NCBI GenBank assembly: GCA_026984595.1
Contig: JALSRW010000405.1
Coordinates: 1-43,835, forward strand
Origin: Alphaproteobacteria bacterium
GTDB taxonomy: Bacteria; Pseudomonadota; Alphaproteobacteria; Geminicoccales; Geminicoccaceae
Reading direction: 5' to 3'
Length of the DNA stretch: 43,835 bases
Position numbers and translations under genes: made by a program. Of the stretch, positions 2,683 to 35,190 are shown piece after piece. The notes under the pieces are model-generated. The model ran no database searches and was not told where the DNA came from. It worked only from the letters and a program-made list of their open reading frames with translations. Positions within the stretch are counted from its first letter, which is position 1, and each line of letters opens with the position of its first letter.

Positions 2683-2870
2683 GGTTTCCTCCTTTTCCTT
2701 GCGAGGGTTCGAAAACGCCGGCGCAGGTGAAACTCCACGCCGCGGCCCAAGCCGGCGCCGGCATGGCAGCGGCGCAGAAAGGTGCGGTGGCGCTGCGGGC
2801 GCGGGAGCCTGTGCCGCGCATCCCGCCGCCAGAGCCGCCTGGCCGCGAGCCGGATGCGCAGGTCACTCAT
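2679..2870 (-). CDS. Hypothetical very basic Arg-rich protein (63 aa)
   Basis: GGAGGAAGACG upstream of the ATG. Coupled at both ends: ATGAGTGA with the upstream peptide ORF and ATGA with the downstream ORF. The composition is extreme, so the call is uncertain. Confidence 0.4.
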   Translation of the reverse strand: MSDLRIRLAARRLWRRDARHRLPRPQRHRTFLRRCHAGAGLGRGVEFHLRRRFRTLARKRRKP

Positions 2871-2976
2871 CGTCTTCCTCCAGCCGGTTGATGCCGCTCA
2901 TGGTGGCGAGCACGGCGAGCAGGCCCAGCACGAACAGGCCGCCGACGGCGAGCAGGAGCAGGACGAGCGTGGCCAT
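2863..2976 (-). CDS. 37-aa hydrophobic membrane peptide (too short for the ORF track)
   Basis: My translation is MATLVLLLLAVGGLFVLGLLAVLATMSGINRLEEDDE. It has a single TM segment with an acidic tail, and its stop overlaps the next start. Confidence 0.4.
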   Translation of the reverse strand: MATLVLLLLAVGGLFVLGLLAVLATMSGINRLEEDDE

Positions 2977-2985
2977 GTCCACGGC

Positions 2986-3150
2986 TCAGGCCCTCGCTAG
3001 CTCGAGCGGGAAGCGCAGGGTGCGGCCTACGGCCCGGGCCTGCAGGTACATGTCGCGCCGGCAGAGCCAGCGGCCGTAGCGGGCGGCGTTGCGGCGGGTC
3101 TGGATATCAGGCTGGTGTTGGCGGATCACGAATGACTGAAGTGGGTTCAT
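2986..3150 (-). CDS. First gene of the leftward early operon, 54 aa hypothetical
   Basis: My translation is MNPLQSFVIRQHQPDIQTRRNAARYGRWLCRRDMYLQARAVGRTLRFPLELARA. CAGGAGGAACCGCC precedes the ATG at 3150-3148, directly downstream of the PL-like promoter. Confidence 0.55.
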   Translation of the reverse strand: MNPLQSFVIRQHQPDIQTRRNAARYGRWLCRRDMYLQARAVGRTLRFPLELARA

Positions 3151-3178
3151 GGCGGTTCCTCCTGATGACTATGGGAGA

Positions 3179-3221
3179 AACATAGCAACCGAAAGTTGCT
3201 ATGTCAACAACCGTGGGTTGT
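3179..3221 (-). promoter_or_regulatory. PL-like early-left promoter with two operator palindromes
   Basis: On the minus strand: TTGACA (3207-3202), 17-nt spacer, TATGTT (3184-3179). The spacer contains GCAACTTTCGGTTGC (3185-3199). A second related palindrome, ACAACCGTGGGTTGT, is at 3207-3221. Confidence 0.7.
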
Positions 3222-3296
3222 GTTTTTATGTGCAATAAGGCATATATGTGCTTTTGGTGGGCTGGAGGGGGAGGGCTGTGGGGGTGGTGTGGGAAG

Positions 3297-3345
3297 CGGA
3301 TATACTGATAGAGATAGAGTTTTTGTTGCGTTATTCGGATATACT
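3297..3345 (+). repeat. Direct repeat CGGATATACT x2 (39-bp spacing) in an AT-rich spacer upstream of the methyltransferase gene
   Basis: Copies at 3297-3306 and 3336-3345. Each contains a TATACT -10-like hexamer. A G-rich tract at 3256-3293 precedes them. Confidence 0.5.
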
Positions 3346-3419
3346 CGCAGCACTCAATAAAGTAATACTCTTATTCTGGTTTTTGTCTGAACAGTTTCGC
3401 CACAACAACAAAAAAGTGG

Positions 3420-4541
3420 ATGACGTTTCGTGAGTATCGAACGAAGACGGCTCATGAACGGACGATGCGACCGAAAAACGACATGAAGAAAATCGCTTGC
3501 GTCGATCTCTATTGCGGCGTAGGCGGACTTTCCTATGGCCTGAAGAAGGCCGGGGTGAACGTCGTTGCCGGAATCGACGTGGACGAGAGCTGCAAGTGGG
3601 GATACGAGCGCAACGTCGAGGCGCGTTTCGTGCGGGCCGACGTCGCCGATCTGAGCGGAGACGATCTGTGCGAGCTCTTCCCTCCGGCCGAACATCGTCT
3701 GCTCGCCGGATGTGCGCCGTGCCAGCCGTTTTCCACTTACGGCAGAACGCGGCAGGGTTCCGACGACAGGTGGTCGTTGTTGCGCGAGTTCTCGCGCCTG
3801 GTCGAAGAGACGAAGCCGGAGTTCGTGACCATGGAGAACGTGGAAGGACTCGCCTCTCATCGCGTGTTCGGCGAATTCCTGGAAACGTTGGAAGAATGTG
3901 GTTATGCCGTCGCTCATGGTGTGCTGGCGTGCGAACGGTTCGGCGTTCCGCAGCGGCGGCGGCGTCTGGTGCTCGTGGCGTCACGCATCGGCGACGCCGT
4001 CCTTCCAGAACCTGATGGCGGGTCGCCGCGGACGGTAAGGGATACGATCGAACGATTGCCGCCAATCGCCGCAGGCGGCGGGCCTTGCGATAGCGACCGT
4101 TTTCACGTCGCCGCCGGTCTTTCCGAGCTGAATCTGCGTCGCATCCGCAATTCCGTCGAGGGTGGTTCATGGCGGGATTGGCCGAAAGAGCTTCGGGCTC
4201 CGTGCCACCGGCGCGAAACCGGCGCCACGTATCCGTCCGTGTACGGCAGGATGCGCTGGGACGAGCCTGCGCCGACCATCACCACCCAGTGTTATGCCTA
4301 CGGCAGCGGTCGTTTCGGACATCCTGAGCAGGATCGCGCCATCTCGCTGCGCGAGGCGGCCATGCTCCAGTCGTTCCCGTCGAACTGGGAGTTCGTGCCG
4401 CCGGGAGAGGAGATCCATTTCGCCACCATCGGCCGCGCCATCGGCAACGCCGTGCCGCCGAAGCTCGCCGAGGCCGTCGGCCGCACGATCATCACGCTTT
4501 CGGAAGCTGGAAGATCGCCGCGAGCCGATGCCGTAGCGTGA
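3420..4541 (+). CDS. DNA (cytosine-5)-methyltransferase (start possibly 3465 or 3483)
   Basis: Motif I DLYCGVGGLS, motif IV GCAPCQPFS, motif VI TMENVEGL, QRRRR, and C-terminal GNAVPP. Confidence 0.92.
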   Translation: MTFREYRTKTAHERTMRPKNDMKKIACVDLYCGVGGLSYGLKKAGVNVVAGIDVDESCKWGYERNVEARFVRADVADLSGDDLCELFPPAEHRLLAGCAPCQPFSTYGRTRQGSDDRWSLLREFSRLVEETKPEFVTMENVEGLASHRVFGEFLETLEECGYAVAHGVLACERFGVPQRRRRLVLVASRIGDAVLPEPDGGSPRTVRDTIERLPPIAAGGGPCDSDRFHVAAGLSELNLRRIRNSVEGGSWRDWPKELRAPCHRRETGATYPSVYGRMRWDEPAPTITTQCYAYGSGRFGHPEQDRAISLREAAMLQSFPSNWEFVPPGEEIHFATIGRAIGNAVPPKLAEAVGRTIITLSEAGRSPRADAVA

Positions 4542-4905
4542 GCAAATCCCGGGTTTCGCATTCCCAGATCGTTTCCACCCGCCATCCGGCGTCGCGCAGC
4601 GCCTGCGCCACGCGCGCATCGCGCGCGACGTTTTCCTCGAACTTCGGTATCCAGTAGTCTCGCCGCGTCTTCGGCGTCGTGGCTTTGCCGCAGCCGGGAT
4701 GCCGATGCCAGAAACAGCCGTGAACGAAGAGGCAGACGCGGTGTTTCGGAAACACCAGGTCCGGCGTGCCGGGCAGATCCTTGCGGTGCAGGCGGAAGCG
4801 GAGTCCGAGGGCGTGCGCGGCCTTGCGCACGGCGATTTCAGGCGCAGTGCCTTCGCGGCGGACGGCGCGCATGATTTCGCTGCGGGTCTTCTTTTGACTG
4901 ATCAA
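4492..4905 (-). CDS. vsr: Very short patch repair endonuclease
   Basis: Matches to E. coli Vsr: TRSEIMRAV (TRSKNMRAI), PGTPDLVF, FVHGCFWHRH, W..KF..NV.RD, GWRV..IWECE. TTG start at 4905 overlaps the upstream stop (TTGA). The 3' end overlaps the MTase 3' end by 50 nt. Confidence 0.92.
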   Translation of the reverse strand: MISQKKTRSEIMRAVRREGTAPEIAVRKAAHALGLRFRLHRKDLPGTPDLVFPKHRVCLFVHGCFWHRHPGCGKATTPKTRRDYWIPKFEENVARDARVAQALRDAGWRVETIWECETRDLLTLRHRLAAIFQLPKA

Positions 4906-10896: not shown

Positions 10897-11382
10897 ATGT
10901 CGGCGCCGGCGGAGTTGGTGGAGCGGTTGGCGAATCCGGTGCGGCTGGTCGCGGACGACGGTCATCCGGAGGTGCCGGGATGGCACTGCGCGGGGATGCC
11001 GGACCACTGGTTCGCGGCGATGCGGATGAAGTGGGCGAACGACTGGTCGGGCGCGAACCTGCTGGAATACCGCCTGTGGATGGCGGCGGTGGACATGGCC
11101 ATCGAGGGTCGCTGGCGCGTGCCGTCCGGCGGGGAGCGCCTGCGGCGCATGGCGGGGCTGGCGATCGCGGAGCTGGCCGATCCGGAACGGTATCGCGCCA
11201 CGGATGCCTGGCAGCTCAAGGCGGCGTGGGTCGGTGTGACGAAGTCGCGCTGGTTCGAGACGTGGCAGCCACGTTACGAGGCGCTATACCGGGTGCTGGA
11301 CGACTGGAGCAACGCGGCCTGGCGGTTCGTGAAGGCGCGCCAGAACGGGATGGTTTCAGCAGACTTGCAAAACCGGGACTGA
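10897..11382 (+). CDS. Hypothetical protein in the Q (late regulator) position (161 aa)
   Basis: Last early-right gene, followed by a hairpin and an intrinsic terminator and then the packaging genes. The function is suggested by position only. Confidence 0.6.
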   Translation: MSAPAELVERLANPVRLVADDGHPEVPGWHCAGMPDHWFAAMRMKWANDWSGANLLEYRLWMAAVDMAIEGRWRVPSGGERLRRMAGLAIAELADPERYRATDAWQLKAAWVGVTKSRWFETWQPRYEALYRVLDDWSNAAWRFVKARQNGMVSADLQNRD

Positions 11383-28800: not shown

Positions 28801-31800
28801 ATGCCCAAGGAGACGTTTCGCGCGCGTCTGGGGCTCGCCGCGGACGGGAAGACGCCGCCGGCCACCGAGCCGCCGGGCCGTGCGCTGGCCGAGGCGTTCG
28901 CCGCGGCGCTGCCGCCGGGGCTGAAGGTGCCGACGGCCTTGCCGGGAGCGCCTGCGCCGCTCGACCTGCCGCCGGTGACGGTGGCGCCCTCCGAGCTGGG
29001 GAACCGCGCCTATTACGGCAACCCGCGGGAAGGGCTGACGCCGGATCTGCCGCGGCTGCCGGCCTTCGCGCCGAAGGTGACGATCAAGGATTACGATACG
29101 TCCACCCCGGCGGGGTTGAGGGCGATGCAGGCGGACGAGACCGCCGGCGTGCCGGGGCCGGTGGCGAAGCCGATGCCGCCGGAGACGCCGGTCGATCTGG
29201 CGCTGAACCTGGCCACCCTGCAGGCCGGCAAGGGCGAGAAGACGCCGAAGGCGATGGCCCAGGCGGACGTGTACGCCATCGATCGGAACGCGGCGCGCGA
29301 GCGCGGCATGTCGCTGAAGGCCTGGCGCGAGGCCACCGGGCCGCGCACAGGCCCGCTGGCGCGGGCCGGCAAGGATGTGGCCGCCGGGGCGCTGGCCACT
29401 TGGCAGGGCATGACCGGCTACCTGGCGCGCCTGGCCGGCGGCGATCCGCGCCTGCGTTCGCTGCAGGCCGACATGGGCGCGAAGGTGGCGGATCTGATGC
29501 CGGCCGATCCCAATTTCTTCGACGATCTGGCGGCGGGCTTCGGCTCCACCGCGGCCTTCTTCGTGCCCGGCGTCGGCATCGTGCGCGGCGCGCAGGCCTT
29601 CGCGCAGACGGCGCCGCGCATGGCCCTGTGGCTCGGCGCCGGGGCGGCCGGCGGCATGGAGGCGGCGGCCGAGGCCGGCGGGGTTTACGAGCGGCTGCTG
29701 GCCGAGGGCAAAAGCCCGGAGGAGGCGGCCGCCATGGCCGACAGGGTGTTCTGGGCCAACACCGCGCTGGTGACGCTCACGGACCGCTACGGCCTGTTCG
29801 CGGAGAAGGGCGGCCAGGTCCTGCGCCGCGCGCTCGGCGCGGTGAACGAGGGCATGCTGCAGGAAGGGCCGCAGCAGATCGTCTCCAACCTGGCCACCGG
29901 TCGCCCGTGGTACGAGGGCGTGCCCCGCTCGGTGGCCATCGGCGGCATCGTCGGCGGCGGCCTGGCCGGCTCGGTGCGCTCGCCGCAGGCGCGGCTCGGC
30001 GCGGCGCTTGACCAGGCGGTGGACGAGCGGCAATTGCCGGACGCCGAGGCCATGGCCCGGCAGGCCCTGATGCCGGAGCGGGCCGCCGCCGTGACGGCGG
30101 GGCGTCCCGGCGTGGCCGGCCAGGCCCGGTCGCCGGGCGTCGAACCGGGCGGCGCTTCCCGGGAAACGCCGCTTCCCGCCACTGCGCCGGCGGCGCCGCT
30201 TTTCTCTCGCGAATCGCCGCCGAACGGCTATACTGCGGTACATGGACGAGACGAAACCCAACAGGATCGTGACCCTGCAGCCGCGCCCGGAAGATTGGGA
30301 ACGGGTGCGCCGGGAAGTGTGCTCCCGAATGCAGCCGGCCGTGCCGGGCACGCCGGTGACGGACGAGGAGGCCATGACTCTGCCGCAGCCCAAAATGATG
30401 ACGGAAGAGGAGTTCCGGCGGCTGAAGGCGAAATTCAGGTCGATGATCTAGACGCCCAGGCCTTCGTCGCCGGCCTCACCCCGCAGGAACTGCAAAACCC
30501 CAACATCGTCGCCTACGCCAGGCAGGAGTGGCGAGCCCGAGGCTGGGACTCGCCCTTCTTCCGCAAGTGGTTCGGCGATGGCTATTTCCGCCAGCCCGAC
30601 GGCGAGCCGCAGATCATGTATCACGGCACGCCGGCGGTGTTCGAGGCCTTCGACAAGGCGAAGATCGGGGCGAGCGGCCACGCCGCCTCCGGCCTCGGCT
30701 TCTTCCTCACCACCAACCGCGACCAGGCCGATCACTACCGCGACGGCGGCCAGGTGATGGAACTGGTCACCAACATCCGCAATCCCTACCGCATGAGCCT
30801 CGCCGAGTTCGCCGGCTTCGAGTCGGTCGAACAGGCCCGGGCGCGGGCCGCCGAGCTGCAGGCGCAGGGTTACGACGGAATCTATGTCGAGACGCCGAAG
30901 GTGCCGGGCGAGCGGCCACAGACCTACGTGATCGCCTTCGAGCCGACGCAGATCAAGAGCGTGGACAATCGCGACACCTTCGACGCGGCGGCCGACAACA
31001 TCTATCTCTCCCGCCAGCGGCCTCCCGGGCGGCAGACGGCCGCCGCGCAGCAGCAAAGCCCCGCGCAAGCGGGGCTTTCCGTCTCCGCGGTCGAGAAAAT
31101 CATCGCCGGCGTGATCCTGAAGTGGGGCGGCAACGCGCCGCGGGTGCAGGTGGTCGCCAGCATGGCGGATCTGCCGGCGCACGTGCAGGCCCAGGCCGAT
31201 GCCCAGGAGGGCATCGGCACCGTGCAGGGCGTGCACGATCCGGAAACGAACGCCATCTACCTGGTGGCGTCGGGCCTGCGGGATCGCACGGCGGTCCTGC
31301 GCACCCTGGCTCACGAAGCCGTGGGCCATTACGGCCTCGAGGCGATCCTCGGCCGCCGTCTCGACAGCGTGCTCGAACGGGTCCAGTGGCTGCGCAAGCA
31401 GGGCGATCCTGTCATCGTGCGCCTCGCCGCGGCGGTGGACGCCGCCTACGGCGAGCTGTCTCCCCATACGCAGGCGCGCGAAATCATCGCCCGCCTGGCG
31501 GAAGAGGGCGTGCGCCATCCGCTGCTGGTGCGCCTGCTCGATGCGCTGCGCGCCTTCCTGCGCAAGCTGGGCTTTTCGATCCGCTTCTCGGTCGCCGATC
31601 TGCGCGCCATGCTCGTGAAGGCCGCCCGCCATCTCGAGTCGGACCGGCCGTCGGCCGCCCAGCGGACGCGGATCGATGAGCGGATGTTTTCGCGCGGAAC
31701 CCGCTTCAGCGAGGTGCCGGTGCCGCCGCGCACGGCGCGCTGGATGGGCTTCGAGGGACCGATCCGCCTGTTCGCGGACTTCGCCGCCCTGCAGCGGCGT

Positions 31801-34800
31801 CACGCGGAATACTACCGCTCGGCGGACGAGGTGAGAAAGGATGTCGAATACGTGCTGGCGAGCCCCGACGACTGGTTCCCGCATGCGGACGGGCGGATCA
31901 CGATCTTCCGGCAGGGCGCAGGCGGGGTGCCTTCGCTGAGGATCGACTTCCGGTTCGAGCGAAAGGGCATGGGCGGTTACCGGATCGTGTCCGTCTATCC
32001 GATGACGCGCCGGTCGATCGCCGGGAAGATGAAAAAGAAGAGTGGGGACCTGGGCCGGGACGGACGCATCTCAGAGCGTATCGTGAGCAGCATGAAACCC
32101 GGATACCTCTCCATTGCCGAGTACCTCGGCGAGGCACAGGGAAACGGGTCTTCGGCTCCTGCCTCCCCCTCCGGGGAAGCTCACCAGGCCCCGGCGGAAA
32201 ATATAGCCGCCGATCCGGCGGGGCGCAACGGTGAAGGGGTTTCCCGGGAAACGGCGGAAGCGAATCGCCGCGATGTGCAGGTGCCGGTGAAGGATAGTTC
32301 CGTGCCTGAAAAAAACAAGGCGCGCGAGACGGGCAAGGGCGGGAACGGACCGTCGTTCTCGCGCGCCGAGCCGGAAATGCTCGACGCGCTCGAGACCGCC
32401 GCGCAGGAAACGCTGCGCGATCGCGCCGGCGTGGCCCTGGATCGGCTCAAGGCCGAGTCCTACGGGCTGCTCACCCGCCAGATGCTGGCCGACGTGGGCA
32501 AGGGGGTGCTGCCGCAGATCGGAACATACGTGAAGATCGCTTCGCAGATGGATGCGGATCGCAACGCCCTGCTCAATGAGGCCGGCGAGCTGGCCAACCG
32601 CTGGGTGGCCTTCCTCTCGCAGGACCGCGAGGCGGCCAATCGTCTGGCCGGCCTGATGCACGAGGCCACCGTGGCCGGGGTGGATCCGAGCGAGGACTAT
32701 GCGCCGGTGATCGACATCGCCGAGGGCCGCAGGAAGGTGGCCATCCTCAAGCAGAAGGCGCGGGGCCGCGGCGGCGAGGGCACGGCGAAGTTCCTGCAGG
32801 AAATCGAGGAAACCCTGGCCACCATGCGTTTCGAGGAAGGCCGGCGCGAGGCCTGGCCGGCGCTGCGCCGCCGCTACGAGGCGCTGCCCGCCGAGGCCAA
32901 GGCCCTGTTCGCGGCCGTGCGCGACATGTACCGCCAGCGCTTCGAGGCCACTCAGCAGGCCCTGCAGGAGCGGATCGACCGGGCCGAGCTGTCGGCCAGC
33001 GAGCAGCGGGCGCTGAAGGCGAAGCTGCGCCAGCATTTCGAGAAGGTCACCGTCCAGGGGCCCTACTTCCCGCTGGCCCGCTTCGGCGAGTTCTGGGTGA
33101 GCGCGAAGAAGGGCGAGGGCGAGGGCGCCGAGACGCGCTTCTACATGTTCGAGGGCAGCGATCAGCAGCGCCGCCAGGCCGCCGCGCTGCGCCGGGCCGG
33201 CTACAAGGTCACCGTCGGAAAGAAGCTCGAGAACGCCCCGGCCCTGCAGGGCGCCAGCGCGGGCTTCGTGGCGGACGTGGTCGACATCATCGAAAAGACC
33301 GGCGGCAGCGGCACCATCGCGGAGAAGGTCAAGGACGAGATCTACCAGCTCTACCTCTCCACGTTGCCGGATCTGTCGCTGCGCAAGCGCTTCATCCATC
33401 GCAAGAAAACGAAAGGCTACAGCCAGGACGCGCTGCGGGCCTTCGCCCGCGACATGTTCCACGGCGCCCATCAGCTCGCCAGGCTGCGCCATGCCGACAA
33501 GCTCGAGACGCTGCTCGAAAACATGCGCGAGTCGGTGCCGGCGTCGTCCGATCCGAACAAGGCGGCCGACATCTTCAACGAGCTGCAGAAGCGCCACCAA
33601 TGGTTGATGAACCCGCAGAGCCACTGGCTGGCCCAGTTCCTCACCAGCGCCGGGTTCGTCTTCTATCTCGGCCTCACTCCGGCCGCGGCGCTGGTCAACA
33701 CGTTGCAGACGCCGCTGGTGGCGTTTCCGGTGCTGGGCGCCGAGTTCGGCATGGGCAAGGCCTTCCGGGCGCTGGAGAAGGCCGGCCGGGACTATTTCGC
33801 CGGCGGCATGGACATCGAGGCCGCCCTGAGCGACGAGGAGCGTCGCGCCTACCAGGTGCTGGTGGACGCGGGGGTCATCGAAAAGACCCTGGCGCACGAC
33901 CTCGCCGGTCTGTCCGAAACGCCGTCGTCCATCTATTCCACGCGCGCGGCGAAGGCCATGCAGGTGGTGACCTTCCTGTTCCATCGCGCCGAAGTCTTCA
34001 ACCGCCAGGTGACGGCCATGGCGGCCTACCGGCTGGCCAGGGCAAGCGGTCTGGGCGTGGAGGCGGCCGTCGACAAGGCCCGCGAGCTGACCCTGGAGAG
34101 CCACTTCGAGTACAGCAACGCCAACCGCGCCCGTTTCATGCAGAGCAACGGCGCCAAGGTGCTGCTGCTGTTCAAGCAGTACAGCCTCAACATGGCCTGG
34201 CTGCTGGGTCGCAACCTGCAGCTCGCCACCGCCCCGGCCCGCGCCGGGGCCCGCAACGCGCTGGCCCGGGCAACCGGCATCGAGGCGCTGCGCAAGCAGG
34301 TGGACGTGGACGTCGAAACCGCCCGCCTGGCCCGGCGCAAGCTGGCCGGGATCCTGTTCATGACGGCGCTGGCCGGCGGGATGAACGCCATGCCGTTGCT
34401 GTGGCTGGTCGAGCTGGTGCTCGAAGCGCTGTTCGACGACGAGGACGACCCCTGGTCGTTCGAAACCGAGGTGCGCAACTTCCTCTACGATCATCTCGGC
34501 GCCAGGGCGGCCGACGCCGTGTACCGCGGCCCGGTCGAGGCGTTGACCGGCGTCGGGATCAGCGATCGGATCAGCCTGAACGAGCTGTTCTTCCGCAGCC
34601 CGGATCGGGATCTCGAGGGCAAGGCCGCCGCCGACTACTGGCTGGAACAGCTCGCCGGCCCGGTCGCGGCCATCGGCGTCAACACCTGGCGCGGCACGCA
34701 ACTGGTGCGCGAGGGGCATCTGTACCGCGGCATCGAGGCGATGATGCCCAAGGTCGCGAAAGACGCCATGAAGGCCTGGCGCTACGCGAGCGAGGGCCTG

Positions 34801-35190
34801 CAGAACCTGCGCGGCGACGTGCTGATCGGCGAGCTCTCGCCCTACGAGATCGGCCTGCAGGCCAGCGGCTTCACGCCCGGCCGGGTGGCGAAGCGCTACG
34901 ACGCCAACCGCGCCTTTTACAACTACGACGACCGGATCGCGAAACGCCGGGCCCGCCTCGTCAACCGCTGGGCGATGGCCATGATGACCGGAGACGGCGA
35001 CGGGATCCGCGAAGCCCTGGCCGCCATCCAGCGCTTCAACGGCAAGAACCCGTCGTTCCGGATCGGCCAGGAACATCTGAAAGGCTCCCTGAAGCGGCGC
35101 CTGCAGTATTCCACGCGCAACCGGGGCGGCGTCTACGTGACGAAACGCAACCTCGGCACGCTGAACCGGATCCGGTTCGCCAACGAATAG
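28801..35190 (+). CDS. Giant polyvalent virion/ejection protein (2129 aa): ART-like, HExxH metallopeptidase-like and PLxRFG domains
   Basis: ART-like MYHGTPAVFEAF...GLGFFLTT...GYDGIYVE...PTQIKS (nt about 30480-30960). TLAHEAVGHYG (HExxH at 31312-31329). YFPLARFGEFW (33070-33087). C-terminal TM segments. The reading frame actually opens at GTG 28705 but contains a TAG at 28786-28788. Confidence 0.85.
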   Translation: MPKETFRARLGLAADGKTPPATEPPGRALAEAFAAALPPGLKVPTALPGAPAPLDLPPVTVAPSELGNRAYYGNPREGLTPDLPRLPAFAPKVTIKDYDTSTPAGLRAMQADETAGVPGPVAKPMPPETPVDLALNLATLQAGKGEKTPKAMAQADVYAIDRNAARERGMSLKAWREATGPRTGPLARAGKDVAAGALATWQGMTGYLARLAGGDPRLRSLQADMGAKVADLMPADPNFFDDLAAGFGSTAAFFVPGVGIVRGAQAFAQTAPRMALWLGAGAAGGMEAAAEAGGVYERLLAEGKSPEEAAAMADRVFWANTALVTLTDRYGLFAEKGGQVLRRALGAVNEGMLQEGPQQIVSNLATGRPWYEGVPRSVAIGGIVGGGLAGSVRSPQARLGAALDQAVDERQLPDAEAMARQALMPERAAAVTAGRPGVAGQARSPGVEPGGASRETPLPATAPAAPLFSRESPPNGYTAVHGRDETQQDRDPAAAPGRLGTGAPGSVLPNAAGRAGHAGDGRGGHDSAAAQNDDGRGVPAAEGEIQVDDLDAQAFVAGLTPQELQNPNIVAYARQEWRARGWDSPFFRKWFGDGYFRQPDGEPQIMYHGTPAVFEAFDKAKIGASGHAASGLGFFLTTNRDQADHYRDGGQVMELVTNIRNPYRMSLAEFAGFESVEQARARAAELQAQGYDGIYVETPKVPGERPQTYVIAFEPTQIKSVDNRDTFDAAADNIYLSRQRPPGRQTAAAQQQSPAQAGLSVSAVEKIIAGVILKWGGNAPRVQVVASMADLPAHVQAQADAQEGIGTVQGVHDPETNAIYLVASGLRDRTAVLRTLAHEAVGHYGLEAILGRRLDSVLERVQWLRKQGDPVIVRLAAAVDAAYGELSPHTQAREIIARLAEEGVRHPLLVRLLDALRAFLRKLGFSIRFSVADLRAMLVKAARHLESDRPSAAQRTRIDERMFSRGTRFSEVPVPPRTARWMGFEGPIRLFADFAALQRRHAEYYRSADEVRKDVEYVLASPDDWFPHADGRITIFRQGAGGVPSLRIDFRFERKGMGGYRIVSVYPMTRRSIAGKMKKKSGDLGRDGRISERIVSSMKPGYLSIAEYLGEAQGNGSSAPASPSGEAHQAPAENIAADPAGRNGEGVSRETAEANRRDVQVPVKDSSVPEKNKARETGKGGNGPSFSRAEPEMLDALETAAQETLRDRAGVALDRLKAESYGLLTRQMLADVGKGVLPQIGTYVKIASQMDADRNALLNEAGELANRWVAFLSQDREAANRLAGLMHEATVAGVDPSEDYAPVIDIAEGRRKVAILKQKARGRGGEGTAKFLQEIEETLATMRFEEGRREAWPALRRRYEALPAEAKALFAAVRDMYRQRFEATQQALQERIDRAELSASEQRALKAKLRQHFEKVTVQGPYFPLARFGEFWVSAKKGEGEGAETRFYMFEGSDQQRRQAAALRRAGYKVTVGKKLENAPALQGASAGFVADVVDIIEKTGGSGTIAEKVKDEIYQLYLSTLPDLSLRKRFIHRKKTKGYSQDALRAFARDMFHGAHQLARLRHADKLETLLENMRESVPASSDPNKAADIFNELQKRHQWLMNPQSHWLAQFLTSAGFVFYLGLTPAAALVNTLQTPLVAFPVLGAEFGMGKAFRALEKAGRDYFAGGMDIEAALSDEERRAYQVLVDAGVIEKTLAHDLAGLSETPSSIYSTRAAKAMQVVTFLFHRAEVFNRQVTAMAAYRLARASGLGVEAAVDKARELTLESHFEYSNANRARFMQSNGAKVLLLFKQYSLNMAWLLGRNLQLATAPARAGARNALARATGIEALRKQVDVDVETARLARRKLAGILFMTALAGGMNAMPLLWLVELVLEALFDDEDDPWSFETEVRNFLYDHLGARAADAVYRGPVEALTGVGISDRISLNELFFRSPDRDLEGKAAADYWLEQLAGPVAAIGVNTWRGTQLVREGHLYRGIEAMMPKVAKDAMKAWRYASEGLQNLRGDVLIGELSPYEIGLQASGFTPGRVAKRYDANRAFYNYDDRIAKRRARLVNRWAMAMMTGDGDGIREALAAIQRFNGKNPSFRIGQEHLKGSLKRRLQYSTRNRGGVYVTKRNLGTLNRIRFANE
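30242..30451 (+). CDS. Embedded 69-codon ORF in the +1 frame of the giant gene
   Basis: MDETKPNRIVTLQPRPEDWERVRREVCSRMQPAVPGTPVTDEEAMTLPQPKMMTEEEFRRLKAKFRSMI. By hand count, third-position G+C is about 59/69 in this frame versus about 32/71 in the giant-gene frame over the same nucleotides. TATACT (30229-30234) lies 7 nt upstream of the ATG. Confidence 0.5.
   Translation: MDETKPNRIVTLQPRPEDWERVRREVCSRMQPAVPGTPVTDEEAMTLPQPKMMTEEEFRRLKAKFRSMI

Follow-up and report, generated by a model that had tools for sequence, protein, structure and literature searches.

A small gene probably nested out of frame in a spacer of a giant prophage polyvalent-protein gene

The left 43.8 kb of a 99-kb metagenomic contig (JALSRW010000405.1) bear a prophage; this whole stretch of 43,835 nucleotides (nt) is referred to below as the window. 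In one of the prophage genes, a giant open reading frame (ORF) for a polyvalent protein of 2129 amino acids (aa), the codon signature leaves the giant frame for about 210 nt and moves to the +1 frame, where a 69-codon ORF runs from ATG to TAG. The question raised by this locus is whether the segment is a second gene nested within the first, the relic of such a gene, a site of ribosomal frameshifting, an error in the sequence, or a compositional quirk of an interdomain linker. The original prediction, made from the letters of the DNA, described the giant ORF and the +1 ORF with coordinates that the ORF boundaries bear out. Judging from codon usage and from the substitutions between relatives, we consider it quite probable that positions 30242-30451 hold a real coding gene and that the giant frame forms a passive spacer there: the codon signature lies in the +1 frame, the boundaries and an upstream TATACT box are conserved, the substitutions are filtered by the +1 frame, and the giant frame is merely open.

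The nested ORF lies wholly inside the giant gene, on the same strand and in a different frame, which is the arrangement of the overprinting class. In the giant frame (30241-30450), the G+C content at the first, second and third codon positions is 0.857/0.600/0.443, compared with 0.609/0.449/0.855 in the nested frame, a profile that resembles that of ordinary whole genes in this DNA (0.71/0.49/0.89); the earlier hand counts of third-position G+C, about 45% for the giant frame and about 86% for +1, are thus accurate. The overall G+C content of the overlap is 0.638, as opposed to 0.66 for the window, so this is not a low-GC insert, and its codon usage is typical. Under a codon-usage likelihood model trained on 18 confident genes of the window, subtracting the log-likelihood of the +1 frame from that of the giant frame gives -47.4 nats over the nested ORF, whereas the null distribution, derived from 5,691 in-frame segments of 69 codons in the 18 genes, has a minimum of +30.9, a mean of 89.9 and a standard deviation of 19.5. 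The codon-periodicity check proposed in the original prediction therefore comes out in favor of +1, by 47 nats. In a comparison of all six frames, +1 leads by at least 34 nats, and antisense coding in the overlap is rejected on the same basis. Within the giant gene, both the likelihood and the G+C profile flip to +1 solely at the nested ORF. The length of the ORF is not evidence on its own: the giant gene has 12 open +1 stretches that reach 60 codons or more, 4 of which are open in the orthologue, too.

A constraint unrelated to protein coding, namely, a regulatory DNA or RNA element or a peculiarity of a low-complexity linker, might mimic a +1 coding signal. Mild inversions of the likelihood in favor of +1 are indeed found in P/A/G-rich linkers of other polyvalent genes, and a clade-specific palindrome and a hairpin are located just upstream of the segment. 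However, those inversions reach only about a third of the strength of the present one, the +1 product is not of low complexity, there is no Rfam match, the G+C profile over the three codon positions is that of ordinary genes, and the substitutions follow the +1 codon positions. We regard a non-coding origin of the signal as most unlikely.

Comparison with orthologous giant genes, another check proposed in the original prediction, showed that the segment is present in the relatives and is again out of the giant frame. The giant protein P0002, which is represented in three assemblies (L001-L003), is 64% identical to the one in the window over the full length, and P0003 (L004), truncated only due to a scaffold gap of 100 N, is 66% identical; L005 is an independent 1.1-kb JGI contig with the same arrangement. 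In L001-L003, L005 and L004, a 76-codon +1 ORF occupies the same place, with the ATG and the TAG at identical aligned positions (MDSKKTPTTKVVSIQPTPEEWREIIARMNEESRRTRGYQEVIPNPVTEEEALTRPQPQKITDEEFLDLQAKFRSMI), and both frames are open in all of these sequences as well as in the window. The ATG, the TAG, the upstream box and its 7-nt distance from the ATG are conserved in five independent assemblies from different samples (GCA_011321775.1, GCA_026992915.1, SRR7787533, ERZ23491057 and JGI 3300028400). The divergence of these sequences from the window is substantial: the window and L001 differ in the overlap by 51 substitutions and four indels, all multiples of 3, and the giant proteins, which are 64% identical, use identical codons at only 64% of the conserved residues. 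The nested-frame G+C is 0.57/0.41/0.855 in L001 and 0.57/0.41/0.91 in L004, and the minimum of the likelihood difference over the whole L001 gene, -37.7, falls on the homologous nested ORF. Double constraint is seen at the two ends only, in the 5' sequence AACGGCTATACT.CGG.ACATG and in the 3' block of 28 nt, both invariant in all lineages. The nested ORF is present in all three lineages that share the junction, and no relative lacking it was found; scans of metagenomes, GTDB and IMG/VR with the ART segment for additional junction orthologues returned only contigs that were already known.

These comparisons dispose of the earlier suggestion of two indels. Two compensating 1-nt errors of assembly or sequencing would account for an excursion that begins and ends cleanly and has a length compatible with a frame-restoring pair, but the same arrangement, with both frames open, recurs in all five independent assemblies notwithstanding the 51 substitutions and the four indels of 3n, and the segment is bounded exactly by an ATG and a TAG. 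The probability of such an artefact is, in our estimation, negligible.

The substitutions point in the same direction as the codon signature. Between L001 and L004, a pair without indels, the Nei-Gojobori omega is 0.28 for the nested frame and 2.8 for the giant frame; between the window and L001, it is 0.52 and 1.7, respectively, and OLGenie-style estimates for all pairs are 0.34-0.76 and 1.4-1.7, all these ratios being indicative of direction rather than of a precise value given the small counts and the three lineages. The proteins encoded by the overlap in the window and in L001 are 58% identical in the +1 frame and 49% identical in the giant frame. Among the substitutions that separate L001 from L004, 2 of 11 fall on giant-frame third positions in the overlap compared with 177 of 279 outside it (Fisher p=0.0036). 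Although the counts are small, these patterns suggest purifying selection on the nested frame, as expected of an overprinted gene. The proposal of an overprinted gene in a linker, with the giant gene read through in frame 0, is accordingly supported by the conservation of the ORF, ATG, TAG and TATACT in two other lineages together with the selection on +1.

A more serious alternative is that the +1 signature is that of a once free-standing small gene swallowed through ORF fusion or insertion of a cassette, which would now be an unexpressed, decaying relic whose DNA serves only as spacer. Consistent with this possibility, the giant frame must be read through, with no stop upstream and no start downstream, the +1 ORF is not preceded by a Shine-Dalgarno sequence, +1 stretches are often open by chance (as are the 4 of 12 mentioned above), and the nested protein diverges fast, with 58% identity and four indels. 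An unconstrained spacer, however, should lose its periodicity, whereas the diverged lineages keep nested-frame G+C at 0.41-0.45 in second positions and 0.855-0.91 in third positions; the omega values are below 1 for +1, as against 1.4 or more for the giant frame; and the ATG, the TAG and the unstructured start region are all conserved. Given that free positions drift to about 90% G+C, the maintenance of the nested second positions at 41-45% calls for continuing selection on the +1 amino acids. We regard this low second-position G+C in the diverged lineages as the strongest single argument against a relic, which appears improbable.

Base composition helps to account for the coexistence of the two frames. 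The frame that the giant gene occupies relative to the nested ORF is open in 80% of the 70-codon segments of real genes in the window, and in 28-32% of random synonymous recodings of the nested protein. Giant-frame codons start on nested third positions, 85% of which are G or C; therefore, T-initial stop codons are rare in the giant frame, and the G/C-initial codons yield a text rich in G, A, D, R, P, H and Q. The giant-frame spacer, which includes HGRDETQQDR..., accordingly contains G14 A13 D7 R6 P5 among 64 residues, and is open but not conserved in sequence, with an apparent omega of 1.4-2.8. Thus, the spacer looks like a by-product of the nested gene rather than the reverse. In the mechanism that we propose, the giant protein would be translated straight through the overlap as a spacer of about 70 residues, G/A/D/R-rich and probably disordered, the amino acids of which would be dictated by the nested gene because the giant codons begin on its G/C-rich third positions. 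An AlphaFold 2 (AF2) model of giant aa 441-760, built from the single sequence, had a mean pLDDT of 42, which is too poor to show disorder specific to the spacer. After the overlap, the giant frame contains no ATG, GTG or TTG until the ATG at 30616, inside the ART domain, in agreement with the original claim that no giant-frame start precedes the ART-like domain; the other candidate starts in this frame, TTG 30295 and GTG 30319, are within the overlap.

How the nested gene might be expressed is suggested by the sequence immediately upstream. TATACT was reported 7 nt before the ATG, and there it is, at the same distance in all lineages. In the giant frame, the hexamer reads as TAT and ACT, both of them rare (23% of the Tyr codons and 1.3% of the Thr codons, respectively). 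Only three copies are present in the 43.8 kb, all following CGGN; besides the one here, these are CGGATATACT at 3297 and 3336, within a divergent intergenic region of 44% GC located 5' of the Dcm methylase gene, and this intergenic DNA at 3297-3345 is an obvious promoter/control region of the prophage. No GGAG-like Shine-Dalgarno motif was detected upstream of the nested ATG, and several other genes of the window have GGAG or AGGAG 5' of their starts. When the 50-nt segments of the giant gene are ranked by lack of structure, the region from -20 to +30 around the ATG comes first in L001 and L004 (top 0.1%) and falls within the top 4.3% in the window. A -10 element about 7 nt 5' of the AUG and the lack of a Shine-Dalgarno sequence are the hallmarks of leaderless genes, and the nested ORF displays both. 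Initiation at ATG 30242 would be independent and would occur without a Shine-Dalgarno sequence, most likely via an internal sigma70-type promoter, CGGCTATACT, giving rise to a leaderless or near-leaderless mRNA. With its own promoter, the nested gene would not depend on an active late operon and could, for instance, be expressed in the lysogen. Alternatively, Shine-Dalgarno-independent initiation might take place in the unstructured start region of the late mRNA. The internal promoter and leaderless mRNA are possible, and we hold this part of the mechanism at somewhat less than even confidence.

Programmed ribosomal frameshifting could also join the two frames, and the original prediction mentioned a +1/-1 recoding pair. 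In this scheme, a +1 shift before 30242 and termination at the TAG (30449-30451) would produce a shortened protein, the N-domain followed by a tail of 69 residues from the other frame, in the manner of phage G/GT or dnaX-type frameshifting; in a variant, the ribosomes would return to frame 0 at the end of the overlap. The +1 frame is open for about 50 codons 5' of the ATG (the upstream stop is at 30092), and the cluster of rare giant-frame codons TAT ACT GCG GTA CAT GGA CGA could pause ribosomes. However, neither an X_XXY_YYZ heptamer nor a stop-assisted +1 site is present, let alone conserved, at either junction. Furthermore, the +1 frame 5' of the ATG encodes an R-rich string without a coding signature, the likelihood switch starting at about 30150-30240, and in L004 this frame contains stops about 35 codons 5' of the ATG. 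A frameshift product would not need the conserved ATG, and a recoding pair would require neither the ATG nor the TAG. Frameshifting is therefore disfavored, and we consider it very unlikely.

The nested product is a hydrophilic protein of 8.2 kDa (GRAVY -0.95). AF2 modeling from a two-sequence alignment predicted helices at residues 16-30 and 55-68, with a mean pLDDT of 75.8 and a pTM of 0.27, and no compact fold, as is typical of a partner-binding peptide. Tryptic digestion in the nested frame would yield the peptides IVTLQPRPEDWER, MQPAVPGTPVTDEEAMTLPQPK and MMTEEEFR. A tblastn search of GenBank phages with the nested protein produced only noise at E>=3; a profile search of 5.8e9 protein clusters retrieved only P0050, the L001-type copy; and an exhaustive hidden Markov model search of 1.84e9 representatives added a single match, P0051, which is a repeat artefact. 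Pattern and tblastn scans of IMG/VR yielded nothing, and sequence searches of Pfam, PHROGs, PADLOC, NCBIfam and PDB gave no match; the labels "moron" and "anti-defence" in the original prediction thus find no support in these databases. A cassette linked to the ART domain was considered as well, but tblastn against the P0013 and P0042 giant genes, which have the closest ART domains, and against all other loci detected no homologue. Our guess is that the product is a partner-binding accessory factor, namely, a moron-like protein expressed in the lysogen or else one tied to the adjacent ART domain as its chaperone or antidote.

Several observations weigh against a nested, separately expressed gene. 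In the libraries searched, the nested protein is an orphan without a homologue outside the clade, so there is no independent evidence from a protein family. Three lineages exist, two of them close to each other, and the counts of substitutions are small; the alignment of the window with L001 was guided by the +1 frame; and, for this pair alone, the positional chi-square is not significant ([15,13,23]). Other polyvalent genes show mild likelihood inversions (-11 to -16) in linkers of low complexity that have no convincing ORF. With respect to the promoter, no -35 match was found and a sigma70 consensus scan was negative; L011 and L012, syntenic phages that are more distantly related, have no CGGATATACT in their early regions; and the two A/T-ending codons of the box would be conserved by chance with a probability of about 0.14 (0.37 squared). 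Finally, expression of the nested gene is something that we infer.

The coordinates of the features at this locus are collected in Table 1.

Table 1. Features of the nested ORF and its surroundings (positions in the window)
Feature	Position	Strand	Remarks
Giant ORF, 2129 aa	28801..35190	+	phage polyvalent virion protein; assigned from Pfam matches and homologue names
FSR motif, TTC TCT CGC, giant aa 468-470	30202..30210	+	marks domain boundary just upstream of nested ORF
CGGCTATACT, candidate -10 element (TATACT 30229-30234, G at -14)	30225..30234	+	identical in all orthologues
Spacer between box and ATG, 7 nt	30235..30241	+	GCGGTAC; CCGGAAC in orthologues; length conserved
Overlap read in giant frame, aa 481-550	30241..30450	+	G/A/D/R/P-rich spacer between FSR motif and conserved pre-ART segment
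Nested ORF, 69 codons + TAG	30242..30451	+	ATG to TAG, in +1 frame of 28801-35190; putative product MDETKPNRIVTLQPRPEDWERVRREVCSRMQPAVPGTPVTDEEAMTLPQPKMMTEEEFRRLKAKFRSMI
28-nt block AGGCGAAATTCAGGTCGATGATCTAGAC	30426..30453	+	invariant in all lineages; encodes nested C-terminus (A)KFRSMI* and giant-frame GEIQVDDLD

The host gene has all the traits of the polyvalent class: it is very large and multidomain, carries polyvalent-associated domains and belongs to the virion module. The phage polyvalent protein family has been described previously (PMC5512222). Pfam searches with the giant protein identified PF18760 ART-PolyVal at aa 600-724 (2e-21) and PF18858 LPD39 at aa 1203-1423 (9e-37); in addition, the protein contains a HEAVGH metallopeptidase motif and a conserved N-terminal domain, and homologues of its C-terminal region are annotated as "PLxRFG domain-containing protein". 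The N-domain is common to other polyvalent proteins and is N-terminal in many multidomain ones. The gene is located in the late structural operon, adjoining the SU10-adaptor and FG-GAP/endolysin genes. As originally noted, the segment with the nested ORF directly follows an FSR motif at a domain boundary. In other polyvalent proteins, the ART module starts about 20 residues after an FSR/LSR-type motif or a short linker, whereas the distance between FSR and ART here is about 130 residues; hence, extra DNA was apparently gained at this junction in the clade. The [FL]SR motif recurs at giant aa 468, 736, 963 and 1186, that is, at every apparent domain boundary. By inference, the FSR/[FL]SR motifs are candidate (auto)processing sites that would release the modules, the HEAVGH motif being present in the same protein.

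In a second linker of the giant gene, at 32116-32325 (+), giant-frame third-position G+C is lowered to 0.60-0.70, but the frame does not switch. Within this linker lies AATATAGCCG; its minus-strand reading (32200-32221), CGGCTATATT, is one mismatch away from the decamer CGGNTATACT, and this site adjoins a minus-strand terminator-like hairpin. About 20 nt 5' of the nested TATACT box, there is a GC hairpin, GCGCCGGCGGCGC followed by CGCTTTTCTCT, at 30184-30209 (+); the orthologues have a different palindrome, CACCGGCGCCGGTG, in this position. Terminator-like hairpins such as the one at 30184-30196 are at chance level, with 5 found in the scan and 4.9 expected.

Intergenic and coding DNA of this phage and its relatives also contains a clade-specific palindrome of 14-16 nt, (C)GTTTCCCGGGAAAC(G). 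The sites are at 1856, 20340, 30156 and 32241 in the window, at 11380 and 13504 in L001, at 1515, 3891, 8314, 12927 and 20696 in L011, and at 1019, 8268 and 11888 in L012. The core with at most one mismatch is matched 7 times compared with 1.4 expected, and neither the adjacent host DNA nor the unrelated polyvalent loci contain the palindrome. The two copies in the giant gene encode "(A/V)SRET" in linkers 5' of FSR motifs, one of them about 66 nt 5' of the nested TATACT box. Its possible roles are those of a regulator or operator site, of a hairpin, or of a target of methylation or restriction (CCCGGG).

The left part of the prophage encodes Cro-like, CsrA, Dcm/Vsr, terminase, portal, SU10-type adaptor and endolysin proteins, and chromosomal genes (nadC, a Na/Ala symporter and cobalamin genes) begin at about 40.3 kb. 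The CsrA homologue is encoded at ~1640-1819. The AT-rich divergent control region (44% GC, 3150-3420) that carries the two CGGATATACT boxes is followed, at 3420-4905, by the gene for the Dcm-type C5 methyltransferase, with a lower third-position G+C (0.73), together with a convergent Vsr-like gene. The large terminase, 12360/12450-14609 (+), comprises 719-749 aa compared with 474-475 aa in syntenic relatives (about 245 extra residues), and matches the Pfam family Intein_splicing just under the gathering score (32.2 vs 35.8 bits), which is consistent with an intein. The intein in terL proposed in the original prediction thus fits; calling the nested ORF a second frame excursion beside it is a loose comparison because the intein is read in frame.

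Do other polyvalent genes harbor similar nested genes? We ran the frame-likelihood scan on four of them. Three (L015, L016 and L017) showed mild inversions only, in P/A-rich linkers where the +1 translation is not protein-like. In the fourth, within the giant gene at L018:1001-10231 (P0042), positions 2844-3035 (+) contain a 63-codon +1 ORF with a canonical Shine-Dalgarno sequence, AGGAGG, 6 nt 5' of the ATG. The inversion there is -17.9, the most extreme in the gene, compared with a null minimum of -4.6; the G+C profile, 0.70/0.35/0.81, is like that of the host gene, and the overlying spacer is G/A/D/R-rich. Homologue searches with this candidate found none. As a lead only, this second, unrelated candidate supports recurrence. 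That spacers of polyvalent genes are recurrent hosts for nested small genes, with products tied to the host gene or to lysogeny (such as an antidote or chaperone of the ART domain, or a lysogen-expressed factor with an internal leaderless promoter), is a generalization that we put forward with considerable doubt. Any gene of a GC-rich phage almost always leaves open the frame that lies one base upstream of its own, so that a giant gene can read through a small one, as a spacer, at little cost.

The implications are both technical and biological. Because gene callers forbid nested genes, they systematically overlook conserved small proteins such as this one in the genomes of GC-rich phages; the nested ORF described here is annotated in none of the long assemblies, and was called once, on the 1.1-kb fragment. 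With the host frame free to act as a spacer, the normal codon signature is retained in the nested frame, and a simple frame-likelihood scan is enough to find such a gene. If the L018 candidate holds, a scan of the linkers of polyvalent genes could reveal a hidden class of small phage proteins. The nested gene lies directly 5' of the ADP-ribosyltransferase module in the gene for an injected virion protein, where one would naturally look for an accessory or regulatory partner. A single mutation that is synonymous in the host frame, T30243C, would knock out the nested gene.

Several known systems share features with this locus. Leaderless genes, such as cI of phage lambda transcribed from PRM, resemble the nested ORF in that a -10-like hexamer lies 7 nt 5' of the AUG and there is no Shine-Dalgarno sequence; in contrast, the putative promoter described here has no -35 element and would lie inside a translated gene. 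The morons of lambdoid and other temperate phages, described by Hendrix, Juhala and colleagues, are small accessory ORFs in the late structural operon that can be expressed from a repressed prophage; they sit between genes, usually with a terminator, and show atypical composition and presence or absence among relatives. The nested ORF is likewise a small accessory ORF in the late structural operon of a prophage, with a candidate promoter of its own. Unlike a moron, however, it lies inside a gene rather than between genes, is typical in composition, is present in every relative that has the junction, and is not followed by a terminator, no terminator-like site having been found 3' of 30451 on the plus strand.

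The closest formal precedents are nested phage genes. Rz1 of phage lambda lies within Rz in the +1 frame. In phiX174, genes E and B are nested out of frame within D and A, respectively (PMC8227390). As in these cases, here a small gene is located inside a larger one, on the same strand but in another frame; it has a start and a stop to itself, and presumably the two proteins are both produced. The difference is that, in phiX174 and in Rz/Rz1, both frames are constrained and functional, whereas here the host frame is passive (omega at least 1.4) and the nested frame has a normal codon signature; moreover, the host here is a 2129-aa polyvalent virion protein of a tailed prophage, and there is no sequence relationship. 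Nor does the nested product have the lipoprotein or membrane features of the Rz1/E type. Thus, internal out-of-frame overlap in a phage is a known kind of arrangement, and we found no described counterpart of this particular member, its host gene or its passive-spacer arrangement.

The latter arrangement has a parallel in hepatitis B virus (HBV). There, the spacer of the polymerase overlaps PreS/S, and this overlap has been proposed to derive from a short gene located between two genes, which were fused into a multidomain protein by a de novo frame (PMC8227390, section 8). By the classical codon-usage criterion, the frame with genome-like usage is the ancestral one (PMC8227390), so the giant-frame spacer would be the de novo frame, as in HBV. 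In our view, however, what the codon signature reveals is the frame that is under constraint at present, rather than the older of the two. Ancestral split genes were considered and set aside: the N-domain is N-terminal in many multidomain polyvalent proteins, and no relative was found in which separate genes flank a free small gene. In contrast to HBV, the N-domain together with variable modules is ancestral in the polyvalent family and, therefore, insertion of the small gene into a linker, or its birth in an expanded linker, is at least as plausible as the fusion of two genes. The virus, the genome size and the proteins are unrelated, and the comparison is one of analogy only. Nevertheless, in both systems an interdomain linker is encoded in the alternative frame of a small gene, the asymmetry of codon usage seen here fits the same logic, and the locus described here would be a parallel, in a bacterial virus, to the spacer/PreS arrangement of HBV.

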